Source: Terrimicrobiaceae bacterium
GTDB taxonomy: Bacteria; Verrucomicrobiota; Verrucomicrobiia; Chthoniobacterales; JAATET01
NCBI GenBank assembly: GCA_028713285.1
Contig: JAQTOP010000010.1
Span: forward strand, 207-64,206
Length of the DNA: 64,000 bases
Direction: 5' to 3'
In this document: positions 1 to 21,187 of the stretch, one piece after another
Numbering within the stretch: the stretch's first letter is position 1
Layout: every line of letters starts with the position of its first letter
Made by a program: the position numbers and the translations under genes
The notes under the pieces: generated by a model
The model's input: only the letters and a program-made list of their open reading frames with translations
Databases searched by the model: none
What the model was told of the DNA's origin: nothing

Positions 1-1972
1 CATCGTAGAGCCGAAAGGCGAACGCGCCGGAGATCCGGGGAGCGCGGGCATCCTGCCCGCCGTTCCCGGCATCCTGCCGGGAACCCTCCTCAAGGCCGCC
101 CCCATCCCCACCGCGCCACCAAATCCAGTCGTAGCTCTCCGCGTCCCCCGCGATCCCGCTGCGCCACGGATTCGACAGCACATAGTGGAACTTCTCCTCG
201 ACATCCGCGTCGGATCGCATGAGCCGATCGTGGTATTCCGCCTCCCACACCTGCGCTCGCGGTGTGCTCTCGATCTCGTTGATTCGATTCGCCGAAAACG
301 ACTTCACCGAATGGAAAATCTCGCTCAGCCCATGGAAGATCGGGTCACCCTCCGCTTCCCCGGATTTAATCATCGGTTGGAGAATCACGTGAACGTGGTC
401 GGGCATCACGCAGAGGGCATAGAGTTCGTAGCGCGAGCCGTCGAAGTAGCGAAACGCGCTGAGCACCGCCTCCCGCGCCGCCGCGCTCAACACCCGGTGA
501 TTCCGCGTGGAAAAAGTCACGTGATAGATTCCGTGCGGGCGCTCGTAGTGAGGAAGGCGGCGCTTCCAGTAGCGAATACCGGGGGCTGGCGGCGGCTGGA
601 AGCCGCCTGTTGCGGGCTGGAAGCCCGCGCTCCCCAACAGAATTGCCGCCTCGCGCTCGAAGAGCTCAATCCCCCGATCCAGCGTCTTGTTGAACGCCTC
701 CTCCTCGCGTTTGAGCGCCTCCTCGACATGCGCCTGCCGTGCGCGGATTTCGGGAAACACATCGCCCATCGTGCGGGCGAGGACGGCTGTGAGTTTGTAG
801 AAAAACGGTTCGTGCAGGCCGAGCGTGCGGCCATAGCGGACGGCGCGACGCAGGATGCGGCGCAGGACGTAGTTGCGGTCGGTGTTGCCGGGCTGAATGC
901 CGTCGGCTATCGCGAAGCTCAATGTGCGGATATGGTCGGCGATTACGCGAAACGCGACGTCGATTTTCTCCTGCTCGCTGTGGCCCGTGCTGCCCGAGGC
1001 CGGGAGCGTGGAGGCGTATTTTTTGCCGCTGAGTTTTTCGATCTCGTCGAAGATCGGGCGGAAGATGTCCGTCTCGTAGTTCGAGATTTTCGCGCCCGCA
1101 AAGTCGGTGAAGCCTTTTGTGCCCTGGAGGATCGAGGCCACGCGTTCAAAGCCCATGCCGGTATCCACGTGCCGCGCGGGCAGCGGGACAAGCTCGATGG
1201 GGAGCGCGGCCATCCTGGCCGTGGAAGCCGGCATCCTGCCGGCTGCGTCCTCGGCGCGAGCAGGATGCTCGCTCGTGCGGGCTGGAAGCCCGCGCTCCCC
1301 GGGCTGCGCGTTGAACTGGATGAAAACGAGATTCCATATCTCGATGCACTCGGCGGTGCCCTTGTTGACGAGCGCGCCCCGCGTGTCGCCCGACGGCGTG
1401 AGATCGACGTGCAACTCGGAGCACGGACCGCACGGACCCGTGTCGCCCATCATCCAGAAATTGTCCTTCTTGTTGCCGTTGACGATGTGGACCGCCGGGT
1501 CGAGTCCGGCGCTGCGGAATTTCCCGGCCCAATGGCTCCACGCCTCCTCGTCACGCTCGGCCGGGTCGCCTTCGTCGGGTTGATAAACCGTGGCGTAGAG
1601 CCGCTGCGGCGGGAACTTCCACCGCTCGACGACCAGCTCCCACGCCCATTCGATGGCCTCCTTTTTGAAATAATCGCCGAAGCTCCAGTTCCCGAGCATC
1701 TCGAAGAACGTGTGGTGGTAGGTGTCGAGGCCGACGTCGTCGAGGTCGTTGTGCTTGCCGCCCGCGCGGATGCACTTCTGCGTGTCCGCCGCGCGGCCCG
1801 GCGTGTAAGGGCACGCGATCTCGCCCAGAAAAATCGGCACAAACTGGTTCATGCCCGCATTCGTAAACAGAAGATTCGGCGAGTCGGGCAGCAGCGAACT
1901 CGACGGCACAATCGTGTGCTGCTTCTCCCGAAAAAACTCGAGGAAGGACGTGCGAATCTCTGCGCTGGTCAT
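1..1972 (-). CDS. alaS: Alanine--tRNA ligase (AlaRS), first ~657 codons. The ORF is open from ATG at 1972 to the window edge at 1, and the 3' part lies outside the window.
   Basis: Manual minus-strand translation from ATG 1972 gives [165 protein letters not shown]. The last residues at the window edge (..[11 protein letters not shown]) match the conserved AlaRS F-x-LYDTYGFP block. There is no stop in this frame anywhere in 1..1972. The ORF is not in the supplied track because it has no stop inside the window. It is interrupted in-frame by the elements at 37..635 and 1199..1300. Confidence 0.9.
37..81. repeat. REP hairpin pair (loop TCC orientation) flanking the RAYT core
   Basis: There are two hairpins with perfect 7-bp GC stems and 3-nt loops: gcgggca-tcc-tgcccgc at 44-60 and cccggca-tcc-tgccggg at 65-81. 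They are preceded by the terminal motif ggggagcgcgggc (37-49). Confidence 0.8.
591..635. repeat. REP hairpin pair (loop GGA, inverted relative to 37-81) flanking the other side of the RAYT core
   Basis: The hairpins are ggcggct-gga-agccgcc at 591-607 and gcgggct-gga-agcccgc at 612-628, followed by the terminal motif ..gcccgcgctcccc ending at 635. The 24-mer gcgggctggaagcccgcgctcccc recurs exactly at 1277-1300. Confidence 0.8.
1199..1300. repeat. 102-nt REP doublet-of-doublets (REPIN/MITE-like) element inserted in-frame in the alaS catalytic-domain region
   Basis: Four hairpins with 6-7 bp stems and 3-nt loops are present: 1207-1221 and 1227-1243 (loop TCC), then 1256-1272 and 1277-1293 (loop GGA). 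The element is bounded by inverted termini, ggggagcgcgg at 1199-1209 and ccgcgctcccc at 1290-1300. It is 102 nt (34 codons) long and is read as [34 protein letters not shown]. It sits between the AlaRS blocks [14 protein letters not shown] and [16 protein letters not shown], where canonical AlaRS has only a short linker. Confidence 0.75.
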
Positions 1973-2072
1973 GGCGAAACTGGAAAGAGTGACGCCGGGG
2001 CAGGCGGAGTCAAGTCCGCCGCCTCGCAATCCTGCGTTGCCACGGCCCTGTCGATTTGTTGCGGTGTGCGGA

Positions 2073-3326
2073 ATGCGACCCCTTCCCGGCTTTCGTGATT
2101 TTTACCCCGAGGATTGCGCGCGCCGCGGCTACCTGCTCGACGGCTGGCGCGCGGTCGCATGCCGCCATGGCTTCGTCGAAGTGGACGGACCCGTGCTCGA
2201 ATCGATGGACCTCTACGCGAAGAAGAACGAAAGCGGAGCCGAGATTCTCGGCCAGCTCTATCAATTCACCGACCGCGGCGAACGCGAGGTCGCGCTGCGT
2301 CCGGAAATGACGCCCACCCTCGCCCGCATGGTCATCGCGAAGGAACGCGACTACCGCAAGCCGCTCAAGTGGTTCAGCATCGCGAATTTTTTTCGCTACG
2401 AGCGCCAGCAAAAGGGCCGCCTGCGCGAGTTCATCCAATTCAATGCCGACCTCCTCGGCGACGCCTCGACGGCCGCGGACGCTGAGTTGATCAGCCTCGC
2501 CATTGGGGTGCTTCGGGAATTCGGATTCACGCGGGACGATTTTGTCATTCGGTTGAGCGACCGGCGGGCGTGGATGGATTTTCTCGCGGCGCGCGGCTGC
2601 GATGAGGGCGCCGCACGGGCTGTGCTCGCGATCATCGACAAGCTGGACCGCGAGCCCGAGGCATCGCTGGATGCGAAACTCGCGCCGCACGGCCTCACCG
2701 TCGCGGAGCTGCGGGCGTTCATCGCGGCGGCCAGTCCGGAGCATTTTGCGCCACTGCTCGACCAGTTCGAGGCGCGCGGTCTGCGCGAATTCGTCGAGGT
2801 CGATCTGTCGATCGTGCGCGGGCTGGCTTACTACACCGGGCTCGTCTTCGAGGCGTTCGACCGCGGCCAGTCGATGCGGGCGCTGGCCGGCGGAGGCCGC
2901 TACGACAATCTGCTCGCCGACCTGAGCGACGGCTCGGTGAACCTCCCCGCCATCGGCTTCGGCCTGGGCGACGTGGTGCTGGGCAATCTCATCGAAGAGA
3001 CGCCACGCGCCCGCGAGAAAATGGAACGCGCGCTTGGGGCCGCGCCGGCTGCGGAGATTTACGTCGTCATCGCCGGGGAGGCGCGCCGCCGCGAAGCGCT
3101 CGGCCTCGTCCAGTCGCTGCGCGACGCCGGCTGGCGCACGGATTTTCCGCTCGATGCGGCGAAGGTCGGCAGGCAATTCCAGACGGCCGACCAGCTCGGC
3201 GCGCGGTTTGCCGTCGTGGTCGGCAACGAATGGCCCGCGGTGAAAATCAAGACGCTCGCGACGCGCGCCGAGGATTCCGTCGCGCACGGCGCGCTTGCCG
3301 AGTGGCTGAAAACCGCCCACGTTTGA
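2073..3326 (+). CDS. hisS: Histidine--tRNA ligase
   Basis: In the frame of track ORF 1851..3326, ATG at 2073 gives the conserved N-terminus [14 protein letters not shown]. Other class II HisRS blocks are [35 protein letters not shown] and AGGGRYDNL. Confidence 0.93.
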
Positions 3327-15758: not shown

Positions 15759-17969
15759 CTAGACTTCCTGCGGCTCGAGGAAGCCCTCGAGCTGGCGGAT
15801 GCGGGTGGGGTGGCGCATCTTGCGCAGCGCCTTTGCCTCGATCTGGCGGATGCGCTCGCGGGTGACCTTGAACTGGCGGCCCACCTCCTCGAGGGTGCGA
15901 CTGTAGCCATCGACGAGGCCAAAGCGCTGCTCGAGCACCTGGCGCTCGCGCTCGGTGAGCGTATCGAGCACGTCCTTGATTTTGTCCTTGAGAAGGACGA
16001 TCGCGGCCTGGTCGGCGGGATTTTCGGCGCTCTTGTCCTCGATGAAATCGCCAAAGCTCGTGTCGTCGCTGTCGCCGACCGGCGCCTGGAGCGAGATCGG
16101 TTGCTGGGCCATCTTGAGCACGGCGCGCACGCGCTCGACGGGAAGCTGGATTTCGTCGGCGACCTCCTCGGGGTTCGGCTCGCGTCCGTATTCCTGGACG
16201 AGCTGCTTCTGCACGCGGATGAGCTTGTTGATCGTCTCGATCATATGAACCGGGATGCGGATTGTCCGTGCCTGGTCCGCGATCGAGCGGGTGATCGCCT
16301 GGCGAATCCACCACGTGGCGTAGGTCGAGAATTTGTAGCCGCGGCGGTATTCGAATTTCTCGACCGCCTTCATCAGGCCCATGTTGCCTTCCTGGATGAG
16401 GTCGAGGAAGGAGAGGCCGCGGTTCGTGTACTTCTTGGCGATGGAAATGACGAGCCTGAGGTTGGCCTCGACCATCTCCGTCTTCGCGCGGAGCGCCTTG
16501 CGATGCCAGTCCTTCAGCTCGCGGTGCCGCTTTGCGTAGTCGGCGGGGGCGAGCCAGAGGCGGGCCTGCATCTCGCGAAGCTGGGATTCGACGTTGCGTT
16601 TCGCCTTGGTGGCATCCGCGGTCTTGCCGCTGCGTTTCGCGCGATCGGCCTCGTGCTGCAGATTCTGGATGAGCCGGAGATTTTCGTCGGCGAGCGCCAC
16701 GAAATCCTCGATGACCTTCTGTTTGAAGAAAAACTTGGGGTAAAGCTTGCGCAGGGCGGCGACATTCTTGTCGAAGGCCTTTGAGTGGGAGGCGCCGGGT
16801 TTGCCTTCCTTCACGACGCCAATCTCGCGATAGGCGGTGGTAACCAATTCGGTCTGCCTGCGCACCTGCTGGCAGAGGCGCGGGAGCAGCTTCATATAGC
16901 GCTCGCGGCTCTCGATTTTCTTATCCTGGATGACGCGGTCGAAGCGTTCGCGCATATCGACGAGCTTCTGGGCGAGGTCCAAGTGCGCCCGAGCGACGAA
17001 GCCGAAGCCGTAGAGCGTCTCCTGCACCTTGATCTCGGCGTCTTCGATGCGTTTGGAAATCTCGACCTCCTGCTCGCGGGTGAGCAGAGGGACCTGCCCC
17101 ATCTGGCGCAAATACATCCGCACGGGGTCGTCGAGGATATCCAGCTTCGAGTCGGCCTTTTCATCCTTCTCGTCCTTCTCGTCGTCCTCCTCCTTTTTGA
17201 AATCCTTCACGCGATCCACGTCGGATGCGTCGATGATTTCGATCTCGACCCCGCGAAGCTGGGCGATGATCGAGTCCATCGTCTCCGGATCGTTCACCCC
17301 CTCGGGCAAAGCCTCTTCAAGGTCATCGAAGGTGACGTAACCCTGCTCCTTCGCGAGCTTGATGAGTTCGCGGACCTTCTCCTGGGTCGCCTTTTGCAGG
17401 TCGGCGGGCGTTTTGGCCGCTTCACCGTTCAGATGGGCCCCGTTAACGGCGACCGAATTCGTGGATTTCGGAACGGCAGTTTTCCTGCTTGCGACCGATT
17501 TCACGGCGGCCACGGCCTCTTTCTTCGCAGACGCGGCGGAGGCGGTTGTTCCGGATGTGGGGGACTTCGGCGCGGTTGCGGATTTTTTTTCGAGAGGCTT
17601 TGCGCTAGTGGCGGGCTTGCGCGCGGGAGCCACAGCTTTCATCTTGGCTCCGCTTGCGGCACGGGCCGGCTTTTTGGCGCGTGCCGGAGGACGGGGCGCC
17701 TTGGCAACAGGGCGGTTCGGCCGCGCGACGGGGCGCTTGGGTTTGACAATCGGTTGCCTGGCGCTTACGGCGGCGGCGACCTGGGTCTTCGGCGCGGGAC
17801 GGCGCTTTGCGACTTCTGCGGGACGCCTGGAGTTTGCCCCGGGCCGCGGGCTCACGGCTTTCGGCGACGTTTTCGGATGACGAGCAGGCGAGGACTTGCT
17901 CTTGGAGACTTTGGTTTTGGCTTTCAAGAAAGGTTGGGCGGCAGCTTCTACAGGAAAAAAGGCCTTCAA
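15759..17969 (-). CDS. rpoD: RNA polymerase primary sigma factor (sigma-70) with ~185-aa K/A/P-rich N-terminal extension
   Basis: Conserved regions are [34 protein letters not shown] (2.x-3) and [30 protein letters not shown] (4.2). The track start is a TTG overlapping the dnaG stop (TTGA). The next in-frame ATG is ~113 codons in, so the start is uncertain. Confidence 0.92.
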
Positions 17970-19747
17970 ACCTGTCCCAGGCTCTTCTGAAGGTCAAGGA
18001 TTTGTTTGTGGAGGGATGCGACCTCGTCGGGACTGGTGTCGGGGTGGCGCATCCGGGAATGGATGGCTGCGATCCCGGCCTGGATTTTCCGCCTTGCCAG
18101 CGAACGCCACGCATCCGCCAATACTGCCACCGGGTCCTCCGGAAGGCTGCTCGAGAGGTGTTCCACCCGAACATTCGCGAGCGCCCGTTCCTCCGCGGCC
18201 GGCAGACCCGCCCGGAATGCGGCGAAGGCCGGGCCGTCCGCGGCCAGCACGGACGACATGGCGAGCTTGTCCACCAGGGCATAGTCCGGGCCAAAATCCG
18301 ACGCGTTCCCAGGCTGGCCGCGAATCCATTCCCGCGCGGCGAGCGAATCGAGGGCGAGCCGGCACATCAGGCGGGCGGGCTCGGACAACTCGACCACATC
18401 GATATCCGCCTCCTCCGATTCGCGGTCGGCGTCGGGACGCGGGGCGGATTTCATCAGCGCTGCGAAGGCGGCGTCGGTCAGCTCGAGCCGGCTGCGCAAG
18501 CGAAGGGTGACCGCCTCGCGGAGCGCGGGATCCTCGATGATCCGCACAAAGCCCGCGAGCTTGCGCGCCAGCGCCGCGCGCTGGCGGGGCGGCGCGCCAG
18601 GGAGCAATTCCTCCGTGAGGACATCGTCGAAATAATCCCGCGCCTCCGCCACCACGGCGCGCAGGGCATCGGCGCCATGGTTTCGCACGAGCGAATCGGG
18701 ATCCTCCCCTGCGGGAACGCGGGCCACGCGCACTCCGAGACCGACCGCGAGTAGCGCCGGCAGCGAACGCTCGACGGCCTTGCGACCGGCGGCATCCGAG
18801 TCGAAGCACAGCACCGCGGACTCCGCAAAGCGCCGCAGGAGGCGCGCCTGCTTCGAGGTGAAGGCGGTGCCCTGGGGTGCGGTGACGTTTTGCACGCCCG
18901 CCTCGAAGGCCGAAATCAAATCGAGCTGCCCCTCGCAGACGACGGCTTCGTTCGCCTCGATGATCGCGCGCTTCGTCTTTTCGAGGCCGAAGAGCACCCC
19001 GCCCTTGGTAAAGATCGGGGTCTCGGGCGAATTCACGTATTTCGCCGGATCGTCGCCGAGCGTGCGGCCGCTGAAGCCGATCACCTCGCCGTAGTCGTTG
19101 CAGATCGGGAACATCACGCGGTTGCGGAAGCGATCGTACGATTTTGGGTTTTCGATTTTGGATTTTGGATTTTGCTCGTCCCGGAGGATGACCAGGCCGC
19201 TCTTGAGGATTTCCTCGCTCGAATAGGCGCGCGCGCGGAGGGCGGCGGTGAGCGCGTCCCAGGAGTCCGGCGCGTAGCCGAGCTGCCAGCGCGCCGCGAC
19301 ATCCGAGCCGATCCCGCGGCCTTTCAAATACTCGCGGGCATGCGCACCGAATTTTTGCCGCATCAGATTTTCGTGAAACCACGCCGCCGCATCCCTGTGC
19401 AGGGCGAGCAGGCGATCCCGCTCGCCCCGGCGCACCTCGTCGCCGGCGGACTCCTCCTCGACGGGCACGCCCGCACGCGCCCCGAGCCGCCGCACGGCGC
19501 CTGGAAAATCGACATTTTCGTAGTCCATGATGAAGCGAAAGACCGATCCGCCCGCGCCGCAGCCGAAGCATTTGAAGGTCTGCCGCGCAGGGTTCACGTG
19601 GAACGACGGCGATTTTTCGTTGTGAAACGGGCACAGCCCCTTCCAATTCGAGCCCGCCCGCTTGAGCTGGAGGTAGCTCCCGATCACAGCCACCACGTCG
19701 CTCGCCGCGGCGACGCGCTGAATGGTGTCTTCGGAAATGCGGGGCAT
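17966..19747 (-). CDS. dnaG: DNA primase
   Basis: An ATG at 19747 inside track ORF 17966..21019 gives [12 protein letters not shown]... It has a zinc finger ([31 protein letters not shown]), [12 protein letters not shown] and a TOPRIM domain ([20 protein letters not shown]). Confidence 0.93.
19140..19174. repeat. Heptanucleotide tandem repeat (GATTTTG x3 perfect, plus degenerate copies) inside dnaG
   Basis: Perfect copies lie at 19154-19160, 19161-19167 and 19168-19174, and degenerate copies at 19140-19153 (gattttgggttttc). On the coding strand this is read as ..[12 protein letters not shown].. Confidence 0.85.
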
Positions 19748-19807
19748 GGCGTAAATGGCTCGAGCGGTGTAACTATTTACAACAGGTCGCACAGGACACG
19801 AAGGATT

Positions 19808-21187
19808 ATGAAATTTCTCCCAGCCCTGGTTTTGCTCGCCGCGCTGCTCGCCGGACGTTGTGAAAACGTGCGCTCGGCCGAGCCGGGCGAAGTCGTCGTC
19901 GTGCCGCTCTCGGGCGAGATTTCCAACGCGCAGACGGCATTTCTCCGACGCACGCTCAAGCAGGCCGAGAGCGCCGGCGCGTCGGCCTACGTGATCGAGA
20001 TGGACACGCCCGGCGGCGAACTCCAGGCGGCGGTGGACATCCTCCAGCTCCTGCTCAAGGCCCGCATCCCGACCTACACGTGGGTGAATACGAACGCCGG
20101 CAGCGCGGGAGCGCTCATCGCGCTCGGGACCGACCACATCTACATGGCGCCCGTGAGCGCCATCGGAGCGGCGGCGCCGGTCTCCAGCGAAGGGGCCGAC
20201 ATTCCCCAGACGATGAACGCGAAGGTCATCTCGTATTTTTCCGGCTACTTCCGCAGCGCGGCGCAGGCGAAGGGCCGAAACCCCGCGCTGGCCCAGGCAT
20301 TCATCGACAAGGACACGGAGTTCAAAATCGGCGGCGACATCATCAGCGCCAAGGGGTCGCTCCTCACGCTCAGCGCGCAGGAGGCGGTGCGAAAATTCGA
20401 CGGCAAGCCGCTGCTGGCCGACGGGCTCGCGGATTCCATCGAGCAATTGAAGGCCGGGGCAAAGCTCGCCGGGCCGACGGAAAGGCTGGAGCCGAGCGGG
20501 TTCGAGCGCATCGCGCAATGGGTGACACTGCTTGCGCCGCTGTTCCTCGTCGGCGGCATCGCGGCGGCCTACCTCGAGTTCAAGGCGCCGGGGTTCGGCG
20601 TCGCCGGCTTCGTGTCCATCGCATGTTTCGCGATTTTCTTTCTCGGGCATTACATCGCAGGGCTTACGGGCCTGGAAGTCATCGTCGTCTTCGCGCTGGG
20701 CCTCGGGTTGGTCCTCGTGGAGCTGCTGTTCTTCCCGGGCGTGACCGTCGTCGCGGCCCTCGGAGTGGCGCTCATGCTTGGTTCGGCCCTCTTCGCGATG
20801 GTCGATTATTTTCCCGGCGATCCCATCATTCCCAGTCCGGAGCAACTGATGCGACCGGCGTTGAATCTCGCCGTCGCGCTGGCGCTGTCGGCGGTGGCCA
20901 TCGGGCTGCTTGCGCGGTATTTCCCGAGTCTGCCGTTTTTCCGCCGGCTGCTCCTGCCGGCCGCGTCGGCCACGGGTCCGTCGCTGGCAGCAAGCACTCC
21001 GATTCGACCCGGGGTCCATCCGGGCATGGTCGGCGTCGCGCGGTCCATCCTGCGGCCCGCCGGCAAGGCCGAAATCGGCGGCGTGTTCGTGGACGTGGTC
21101 ACCGAGGGCGAATTTCTCGATGCCGGAACGCCCGTGCGCGTGACGATGGTCGAGGGCAGCCGCGTCGTGGTATCCGCGTCAGCCTAG
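19808..21187 (+). CDS. nfeD: NfeD-family membrane-bound serine protease (ClpP-class)
   Basis: The ATG at 19808 follows aagga and gives a signal peptide MKFLPALVLLAALLAG. A ClpP-like domain (IEMDTPGGEL..AGSAGALIAL) is followed by 4-5 TM helices and a C-terminal NfeD beta-barrel (GKAEIGGVFVDVVTEGEFLDAGTPVRV). Confidence 0.85.
   Translation: MKFLPALVLLAALLAGRCENVRSAEPGEVVVVPLSGEISNAQTAFLRRTLKQAESAGASAYVIEMDTPGGELQAAVDILQLLLKARIPTYTWVNTNAGSAGALIALGTDHIYMAPVSAIGAAAPVSSEGADIPQTMNAKVISYFSGYFRSAAQAKGRNPALAQAFIDKDTEFKIGGDIISAKGSLLTLSAQEAVRKFDGKPLLADGLADSIEQLKAGAKLAGPTERLEPSGFERIAQWVTLLAPLFLVGGIAAAYLEFKAPGFGVAGFVSIACFAIFFLGHYIAGLTGLEVIVVFALGLGLVLVELLFFPGVTVVAALGVALMLGSALFAMVDYFPGDPIIPSPEQLMRPALNLAVALALSAVAIGLLARYFPSLPFFRRLLLPAASATGPSLAASTPIRPGVHPGMVGVARSILRPAGKAEIGGVFVDVVTEGEFLDAGTPVRVTMVEGSRVVVSASA

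Follow-up and report, generated by a model that had tools for sequence, protein, structure and literature searches.

An in-frame REP-RAYT-REP cassette in the alaS gene of a Terrimicrobiaceae bacterium as a probable mobile REPtron

Results

Layout of the alaS locus

The DNA analysed in this study (the window, a stretch of 64,000 nt from a contig of a Terrimicrobiaceae bacterium, a soil verrucomicrobium) begins within alaS, the gene of alanine--tRNA ligase (AlaRS), and this gene carries in its reading frame a cassette made of a REP-associated tyrosine transposase (RAYT) between repetitive extragenic palindromic (REP) hairpins. The N-terminal 657 codons of alaS occupy 1..1972 on the minus strand. 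As an earlier reading made from the letters alone (the sequence-only reading) had claimed, the frame is free of stop codons from the ATG at 1972 to base 2, and it runs past the window start. The database protein that is 100% identical to the window product (P0001) is a 726-aa partial sequence from a Terrimicrobiaceae bacterium metagenome-assembled genome (MAG) at NCBI, whose 64,238-nt contig ends inside alaS. The Pfam family tRNA-synt_2c covers residues 5-444 of the open reading frame (ORF) with E 4.8e-139, and the full-length AlaRS relatives contain PF01411, PF07973 and PF02272, with the tRNA_SAD editing and DHHA1 C-terminal domains. Because the window gene is truncated and interrupted, it reaches only 435.6 bits with TIGR00344, below the cutoff of 457.

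The cassette (37..635, minus strand, 599 nt) encodes residues ~446-645 of the mosaic protein. Its mRNA-proximal (5') REP end module (591..635, minus strand) consists of the tail GGGGAGC (629-635), hairpin 1 (612-628) and hairpin 2 (591-607), and its mRNA-distal (3') module (37..81, plus strand when read from the outside in) consists of the same tail (37-43), hairpin 1 (44-60) and hairpin 2 (65-81). All four hairpins are perfect, with 7-bp stems and 3-nt loops. Hairpin 1 reads GCGGGCT-TCC-AGCCCGC in the 5' module (minus strand) and GCGGGCA-TCC-TGCCCGC in the 3' module, where hairpin 2 can be extended to a 10-bp stem (62-84). The terminal inverted repeat GGGGAGCGCGGGC is perfect over 13 nt (37-49 and 623-635). 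These hairpins and repeats had all been described before and were found at the same positions. The RAYT core, a Y1 HUH tyrosine transposase, lies between the modules (119..565, minus strand, residues 470-618) and was recognised by profiles, motifs, dN/dS and fold.

The cassette has no gene signals of its own. In the window, no ATG stands ahead of the RAYT core and no stop follows it; the only nearby in-frame alternative start is a TTG at the left junction, where the relatives have CTG, CCG or TCG, and no conserved start or stop was found around the RAYT domain in 35 metagenome loci or 110 full-length proteins. The scan for sigma-70-like internal promoters found no site, although such a scan is weakly informative for this phylum. 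The claim that the insert can be translated only as an internal module of AlaRS was supported both in the window and in the relatives. No Hint or intein match of Pfam was obtained on the whole alaS ORF, and the protein of the cassette begins with G-S-A-G and ends with A-R-A-P before an R, without the Cys/Ser/Thr and Asn needed for protein splicing. The Rfam search of 1-2200 at E <= 1 found no intron or ribozyme and only a chance small RNA match, so that self-splicing of the RNA was ruled out as far as the known Rfam families go.

The embedded protein is a RAYT under selection

The proposed Y1/RAYT transposase core received significant matches from two profiles. Y1_Tnp of Pfam matched residues 482-580 with 24.3 bits on the ORF and 27.9 bits on the insert alone (gathering score 23), and REP_Tyr_transpos of NCBIfam (NF047646) was matched over 3-145 of its 146 profile positions with 80.7 bits (cutoff 80). 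Because both scores are just above threshold, we regard this RAYT as a divergent member of the family. The NCBIfam profile transpos_IS200 gave only 19 bits (cutoff 55). The motifs on the minus strand are RRLPHYERP (536-562), the HUH motif PDHVHV (386-403, residues 524-529), a 12-residue motif (215-250), the tyrosine motif FHYVLSNPW (164-190, residues 595-603) and YDWIWW (116-133), and the spacing of ~70 residues between the HUH and Tyr motifs matches that of the RAYT family. Among the 110 full-length relatives, R.LPH, MPDHvH, KS, W.E..DR and EKf.YicrNPw are at least 95% conserved, and the HUH and Tyr residues are invariant. Pairs close enough to measure gave dN/dS values of 0.05-0.12 for the RAYT core, read in the alaS frame; for the AlaRS core, the cleanest of these pairs gave 0.05-0.1, and some values reached ~0.3. 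No decay of the mosaic alaS was seen in these values.

The PDB search by sequence gave only one marginal IS200 match (2fyx, E 0.52), and a comparison of folds was therefore needed. The AlphaFold model of the insert has a predicted local distance difference test (pLDDT) score above 90 for residues 31-178. Its best Foldseek match in the PDB is 4er8_A, the E. coli RAYT in complex with a REP hairpin (E 6e-8, template modelling score 0.46/0.55), and the next matches are the TnpA of ISDra2, IS200 and IS608. The stretches encoded by the REPs have pLDDT < 50 in both the insert and the whole-protein models, as expected of flexible linkers. The structure model predicts a Y1 fold for the insert, while its spatial placement in AlaRS is beyond the confidence of the whole-protein model. 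Profiles, predicted fold and ortholog alignment agree on a REP-RAYT-REP unit in frame between two conserved AlaRS blocks, and the boundaries proposed earlier (left side ..AAILLG) coincide with those in relatives with an empty site, such as LFEAEADSKNG| in L190.

A second, RAYT-less element in alaS

The sequence-only reading reported one element in alaS, which stands at 37-635, and overlooked another at 1199..1300 (minus strand). This 102-nt element is a REPIN (REP doublet forming hairpins), composed of two inverted REP end modules 12 nt apart, and it encodes 34 aa in the alaS frame. Its termini GGGGAGCGCG...CGCGCTCCCC are those of the 599-nt cassette, and its outer 25 nt are identical to 611-635. 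The hairpins at 1227-1243, 1256-1272 and 1277-1293 are perfect, and that at 1206-1222 is imperfect. The 102-nt element is the cassette minus its transposase, and its modules are read in a different frame (GERGLPAR, versus GSAGFQPA in the cassette). It sits in the FNAQP loop of the AlaRS aminoacylation domain, and its product has pLDDT < 50 in the whole-protein AlphaFold2 model. The insert at 1199-1300 is absent from the relatives shown in the alignment; in the FNAQP loop, P0036 has a different, unrelated insert, and P0023 and P0038 have short ones. The only dispersed REP or REPIN copy beyond the cassette in the window is thus also in alaS, and the remaining 62 kb contained no further copies of the termini, the end modules or the RAYT.

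The hairpin ends are conserved as nucleic acid

Read from the outside in, the cassette ends are composed of GGGGAGC, hairpin 1 (7-bp stem, 3-nt pyrimidine-rich loop), one base and hairpin 2, which generally has a 9-10 bp stem and a 3-4-nt loop. The tail GGGGAGC is conserved, with the variants GGGTAGC and GGGTGGA. The tag GT[AG]G or CGTC, which stands beside the palindrome in the RAYT family, is absent and has GGGGAGC in its place; the tail appears to be a functional analogue of this tag with another sequence. Inverted end modules of 24-71 nt were found in 33 of the 35 loci, and the two ends of each locus match. At least seven hairpin-1 sequences occur among the lineages (GCGGGCT-TCC, GCGCCCG-CCC, GCACGCG-ACC, GCGGGCG-CCT, ACACGCG-TCT and ACGGGCC-ACC, among others), and the REP (hairpin) type tracks the RAYT subtype.

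In 47 distinct end modules, 91.5% of the cells were paired, compared with 67.4% in shuffles (0 of 500 reached the observed value), and pairing fell to 35-45% when the partner columns were slid. Helix 1 was 99.4% paired, with double-sided changes in 5 of its 7 pairs, and such changes were found in 9 of the 10 pairs of helix 2; G-U pairs are present in the stems. The two ends of an element often differ in the outer half of hairpin 2, but both remain self-complementary. The flanking hairpins are maintained by compensatory changes. Because the modules occur in differing frames and copy numbers by lineage (duplicated or in other frames in P0052, P0034 and P0017), the constraint lies on the nucleic acid, and the peptides GSAGFQPA and GLEARAP are by-products of DNA conservation. 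Stop codons in the six frames of the end modules numbered 30, against 78.5 +/- 8.3 in shuffles, and 41 of 66 modules had none, a depletion that is suggestive only because the module sequences are related. The modules of P0052, P0017 and P0034 are tandemly doubled (GSARFQRAGSGFQPEPS twice), placed within the C-terminal linker of the cassette, or read in another frame, which suggests that the cassette ends are themselves targets for further REP insertions.

The cassette is widespread at one alaS site

The best 120 AlaRS matches all contain the insert; they are 61-70% identical at 100% query cover and have 1090-1150 aa where full length. Their sources are named Chthoniobacter, Chthoniobacteraceae/-ales, Terrimicrobiaceae, Spartobacteria and Verrucomicrobiae, and the automatic name given by JGI is 'alanyl-tRNA synthetase/REP element-mobilizing transposase RayT'. 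In a metagenome scan, 35 further alaS loci were filled at exactly the same site and 13-14 were empty; the empty alleles have a short loop there, variable in both length and sequence. The same architecture was seen in more than 150 independent assemblies (NCBI, JGI, ENA and Logan). With 120 protein clusters and 35 metagenome loci sharing this architecture at one alaS position, the insert is beyond chance. The insert is neither an isolated oddity nor a recent accident, since it spans a large verrucomicrobial clade under purifying selection. At the cassette site, L187 (817-1152) and L197 (3082-3264) have unrelated inserts that lack a RAYT and a REP signature, with 112 and 61 residues between the motifs, so this site admits other passengers too.

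Other alaS loops are also occupied. The loop after ..KYxSTLP (Pfam position ~264) has a RAYT in P0193 and P0197 and a REPIN in L154 (1089-1204). Further in-frame REPINs lie in the FNAQP loop of L134 and L150 (other REP type), in the STLP loop of L154, and ahead of the editing domain in L140 and L158. The occupation of several loops implies that AlaRS has at least 3 or 4 permissive sites for these elements, and small RAYT-less derivatives have landed in frame in alaS loops other than the cassette site, including that at 1199-1300. Of the 7 extra REP copies in the 35 loci and their 3-kb flanks, only one was outside alaS. Together with the two REP-bearing elements of the window, both in alaS, this points to an enzyme that acts preferentially near its own gene, or to a target preference, with modest statistics.

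Cassettes are exchanged and lost

The empty allele L190 and the filled allele L138 are 94.4% identical over ~700 residues of AlaRS flanks, while filled-filled pairs go down to 64%. In a rough neighbour-joining (NJ) tree built from the AlaRS flanks, the empty alleles are scattered among the filled ones. The identities of the AlaRS flanks and of the RAYT were uncorrelated in 32 filled loci (Spearman 0.01): L127 and L148 share 89% in AlaRS and 47% in the RAYT, and L140 and L130 share 73% in AlaRS and 93% in the RAYT. The DNA identity of L127 and L148 is 80-95% in the flanks and drops to 35-65% in the cassette interior, and the break in identity falls exactly at the common termini GGGGAGCGC and GCGCTCCCC. 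From the empty and filled alleles and this discordance, it follows that alternative cassettes occupy the site and are swapped or lost within short evolutionary times. On the same grounds, a single ancient vertical insertion was dropped as the whole story.

The same RAYT lineage in other host genes

The 200-aa insert was searched against 1.84 billion representative proteins, which gave 5695 relatives at E <= 1e-3 and 1188 at E <= 1e-10. Host sequence of at least 100 residues borders the RAYT on both sides in 24 of the best 149 relatives, and on one side or both in 60. The host proteins by Pfam are AlaRS (also at a second site), RecG (two sites), PriA, ValRS, another class I synthetase, PurH, DnaK, an SNF2 helicase, DNA methylases, RdgB/Ham1, BirA, CarB, shikimate kinase and a glycyl radical enzyme, and the junctions in these hosts likewise encode pairs of REP-type peptides. 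The earlier focus on alaS was right in that alaS hosts a RAYT, but it is one of many hosts for this lineage. The contig L001 carries both an alaS RAYT and a recG RAYT, which are 48% identical and have unlike REP types; recG (17722-20445, minus strand) carries the latter in frame within the DEAD helicase domain, with the REP GGGTAGC GCACGCG-GCC-CGCGTGC.

Exact copies of the 23-nt REP of the window, GGGAGCGCGSGCWTCCWGCSCGC, stand in at least 120 places of the genome collection (L002-L121), of which none listed is alaS and one is beside a RAYT. These places belong to Acidobacteriota, Chloroflexota, Dehalococcoidia, Planctomycetota, Gammaproteobacteria, Armatimonadota, Kiritimatiellae and others, and the copies are mostly 60-150-nt doublets, often bounded by CCT...AGG. 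Horizontal spread and a constraint imposed by the enzyme are both possible reasons for the identity of this REP across phyla. In a Verrucomicrobia MAG (L069, 1520-1641), four REP 23-mers stand in direct tandem exactly 33 nt apart, which may be an 11-residue protein repeat built of REPs.

Discussion

In this study, we believe that the cassette is probably a mobile REPtron, in which a RAYT and its own REP hairpins are carried as an in-frame unit in a variable surface loop of the essential gene alaS. The cassette would be translated as an internal domain of AlaRS, with the REP-encoded peptides as disordered linkers, and the transposase would borrow the promoter, the ribosome-binding site and the steady expression of a gene that the cell cannot lose. 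The HUH/Tyr centre may bind the folded REP hairpins on single-stranded DNA and cut and rejoin the strand beside the GGGGAGC tail; this cleavage step is proposed because of the homology to E. coli TnpA-REP and to the TnpA of IS200/IS605. Such cleavage would mobilise REPINs and permit excision, re-insertion and end-for-end replacement of the cassette. An in-frame berth in an essential gene would be cheap to carry, and it would protect the element against the frameshifts, stop codons and imprecise deletions by which transposases are normally lost. The nascent enzyme would favour its own locus, and extra REPINs would hence accumulate in alaS. Two meanings considered at the outset, a tolerated loop insertion and expression that hitch-hikes on a housekeeping gene, fit best with the results, and a third, a domesticated module, is the least supported, because close relatives are empty or have swapped cassettes.

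Several points weigh against this explanation. Translation of the fusion, nuclease activity and transposition are all inferred by comparison. Plain homologous recombination in the highly conserved alaS flanks, following DNA uptake, could account for the exchange of cassettes without any role of the RAYT. The residues to the left of the site differ between L190 and L138, so their junction shows no clean excision scar, and the NJ tree carries no support values. dS was saturated for most pairs. The whole-protein AlphaFold2 model has low confidence (pLDDT 66.9), and only its per-residue pattern was used. No large REPIN population was seen in the window or around the 35 loci, with 0 copies in the other 62 kb of the window and 1 outside alaS in the 35 loci with their flanks; the role of the RAYT in spreading REPINs may therefore be minor. 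In addition, the conservation of the catalytic residues exceeds what a 'hostage' location alone explains, and therefore some selection on the activity, by the element or by the host, must be assumed.

We also put forward, more tentatively, a wider form of this proposal. Cassettes of this kind may be held in fixed loops of essential genes (alaS, recG, priA, valS, dnaK, purH and others), be expressed only as domains of their hosts, and be gained, lost or replaced by RAYT cleavage at the GGGGAGC tails; we regard this as quite possible. If true, these cassettes would mirror intein homing at the DNA level, with no need for splicing, and they would be a likely source of at least some of the in-frame palindromic repeats in bacterial proteins.

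Another explanation is that an ancient RAYT was exapted as an insertion domain, is inherited vertically, and has a host role in binding or cleaving structured DNA or RNA or in regulating alaS. The same site is filled over a wide clade at 61-70% AlaRS identity, the RAYT core is constrained by purifying selection as strongly as the AlaRS core, the catalytic residues are invariant, and RAYTs are generally seen as domesticated, vertical, single-copy genes (PMC5581495). We nevertheless consider domestication unlikely. An empty alaS that is 94.4% identical to a filled one shows that the domain is dispensable for AlaRS, and the uncorrelated divergence of RAYT and AlaRS shows that cassettes were swapped between lineages. 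The same RAYT lineage is also found in more than a dozen unrelated host proteins, and the REP hairpins, which are structures of transposon ends, are kept at the DNA level.

It is also improbable, in our view, that the insert is missing from mature AlaRS, whether through RNA processing guided by the paired repeats, through proteolysis of the linkers into a two-piece AlaRS and a free RAYT, or through internal initiation. The terminal repeats and hairpins would fold in the mRNA as well, the stems contain G-U pairs, the linkers are predicted to be disordered, and a TTG codon stands at the left junction in the window. Against these points, there is neither an Rfam intron or ribozyme match nor a Hint domain, the junction residues (G...P|R) are unsuited to protein splicing, and the 35 loci and 110 full-length proteins share no conserved start or stop. 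If the segment were excised from the RNA, there would also be no need to maintain the frame or a length divisible by three. The idea that the mosaic is an assembly chimera, or a copy of alaS that a transposon has inactivated and whose frame stays open through high G+C, is effectively refuted: the contig does end inside alaS and chance long frames do occur in the 65% G+C window, but over 150 independent assemblies show the identical architecture, the host and insert parts alike have dN/dS values far below 1, and the catalytic motifs of AlaRS and RAYT are all intact.

Studies have shown that free-standing REPtrons and REPINs are well described (PMC3333891, PMC5581495) and that E. coli TnpA-REP cuts and rejoins at REP hairpins on single-stranded DNA (PMC3479197, PMC8266576). 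The alaS cassette is like the REPtrons of E. coli, Pseudomonas and Stenotrophomonas (4ER8; PMC3333891, PMC3479197, PMC8266576, PMC5581495) in its fold and HUH/Tyr motifs, in the inverted hairpin brackets with a short conserved 5' tail, in the co-variation of enzyme and REP, and in the presence of RAYT-less doublets. However, the known RAYTs are free-standing and intergenic, with their own start and stop, whereas the alaS RAYT has neither and lies inside an essential gene. The tail of the known systems is GTAG or CGTC, whereas that of the alaS cassette is GGGGAGC, with no large REPIN population nearby. The known REPtrons are strictly vertical, whereas the alaS cassettes are exchanged or lost at one fixed site.

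In-frame insertions of REPs and Rickettsia palindromic elements (RPEs) in housekeeping genes have been reported, including those of the verrucomicrobium Opitutus terrae (PMC3733652). RPEs and intragenic GTAG/CGTC REPs are hairpin repeats in frame in repair and replication genes and tRNA synthetases, where 20-80 extra residues are tolerated in loops (PMC3733652). The 102-nt element at 1199-1300 is exactly of that kind, and the likeness to RPEs drawn in the sequence-only reading suits it well. It does not suit the 599-nt element, which carries a full transposase in frame, whereas RPEs and intragenic REPs carry no enzyme and no transposase of RPEs is known. In the alaS system, unlike in RPEs, the short elements are visibly end-only derivatives of a transposase cassette.

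Inteins with homing endonucleases are also in-frame parasites at fixed sites of conserved essential proteins, such as synthetases, helicases and replication proteins. With inteins, too, close relatives differ in whether a site is empty, filled or filled by another element, and the essentiality of the host likewise bars their loss. In contrast to inteins, the alaS cassette has no Hint domain or splicing residues and is presumably retained in the mature protein, its site is a variable surface loop instead of a catalytic motif, and its enzyme is HUH instead of LAGLIDADG/HNH. IS200/IS605 elements and IStrons similarly use a Y1 HUH transposase on subterminal hairpins of single-stranded DNA. IStrons, too, cut the cost to the genes they interrupt, but they do so by group I self-splicing, and the alaS cassette apparently does so by read-through translation. 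The ends of IS200/IS605 are non-inverted and their tnpA has its own expression, whereas the cassette has inverted ends, one RAYT in the window and no gene signals.

In the searched literature, mostly without subscription journals, an in-frame RAYT inside AlaRS or another host protein is nowhere described. The remark in the sequence-only reading that no aminoacyl-tRNA synthetase with an embedded RAYT was known agrees with this, although the fusions are visible in automated annotation. The intein-like, in-frame, cassette-exchanging lifestyle of this REPtron is new in that it is undescribed for RAYTs in the searched literature. The upkeep of single-copy RAYT transposases has been called 'difficult to explain' (PMC5581495). 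An in-frame berth in an essential gene would be a concrete strategy of RAYT persistence, with guaranteed expression and a shield from frameshifts, stops and imprecise deletion. It would also link REP/RAYT systems with in-frame palindromic repeats (RPEs and verrucomicrobial intragenic REPs), for which it supplies a candidate enzyme and a series from full length to miniature in one gene. The system is testable, because filled, empty and alternative-cassette alleles of alaS exist in nature, the substrate is defined (GGGGAGC and a 7-bp/3-nt hairpin), and the nearest solved relative of the enzyme was crystallised with a REP hairpin bound.

There may also be consequences for annotation. RAYT surveys have set aside such 'fusion' proteins, and the name given by NCBI to these proteins is 'alanine--tRNA ligase-related protein'. 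Because of this naming and the scores below cutoff, the carrier genomes may be scored as lacking alaS.

Two further features of the window lie next to the mosaic gene. A 637-aa antisense open frame (plus strand, 185-2098) lies opposite alaS and is taken as a by-product of the 65% G+C, not as a gene; since such a frame arises by chance, open frames alone say little in this window. An ORF on the plus strand (~2060-3326) is divergent from alaS and by eye, from sequence alone, resembles histidyl-tRNA synthetase; only ~100 nt lie between the start of alaS and that of the putative hisS.

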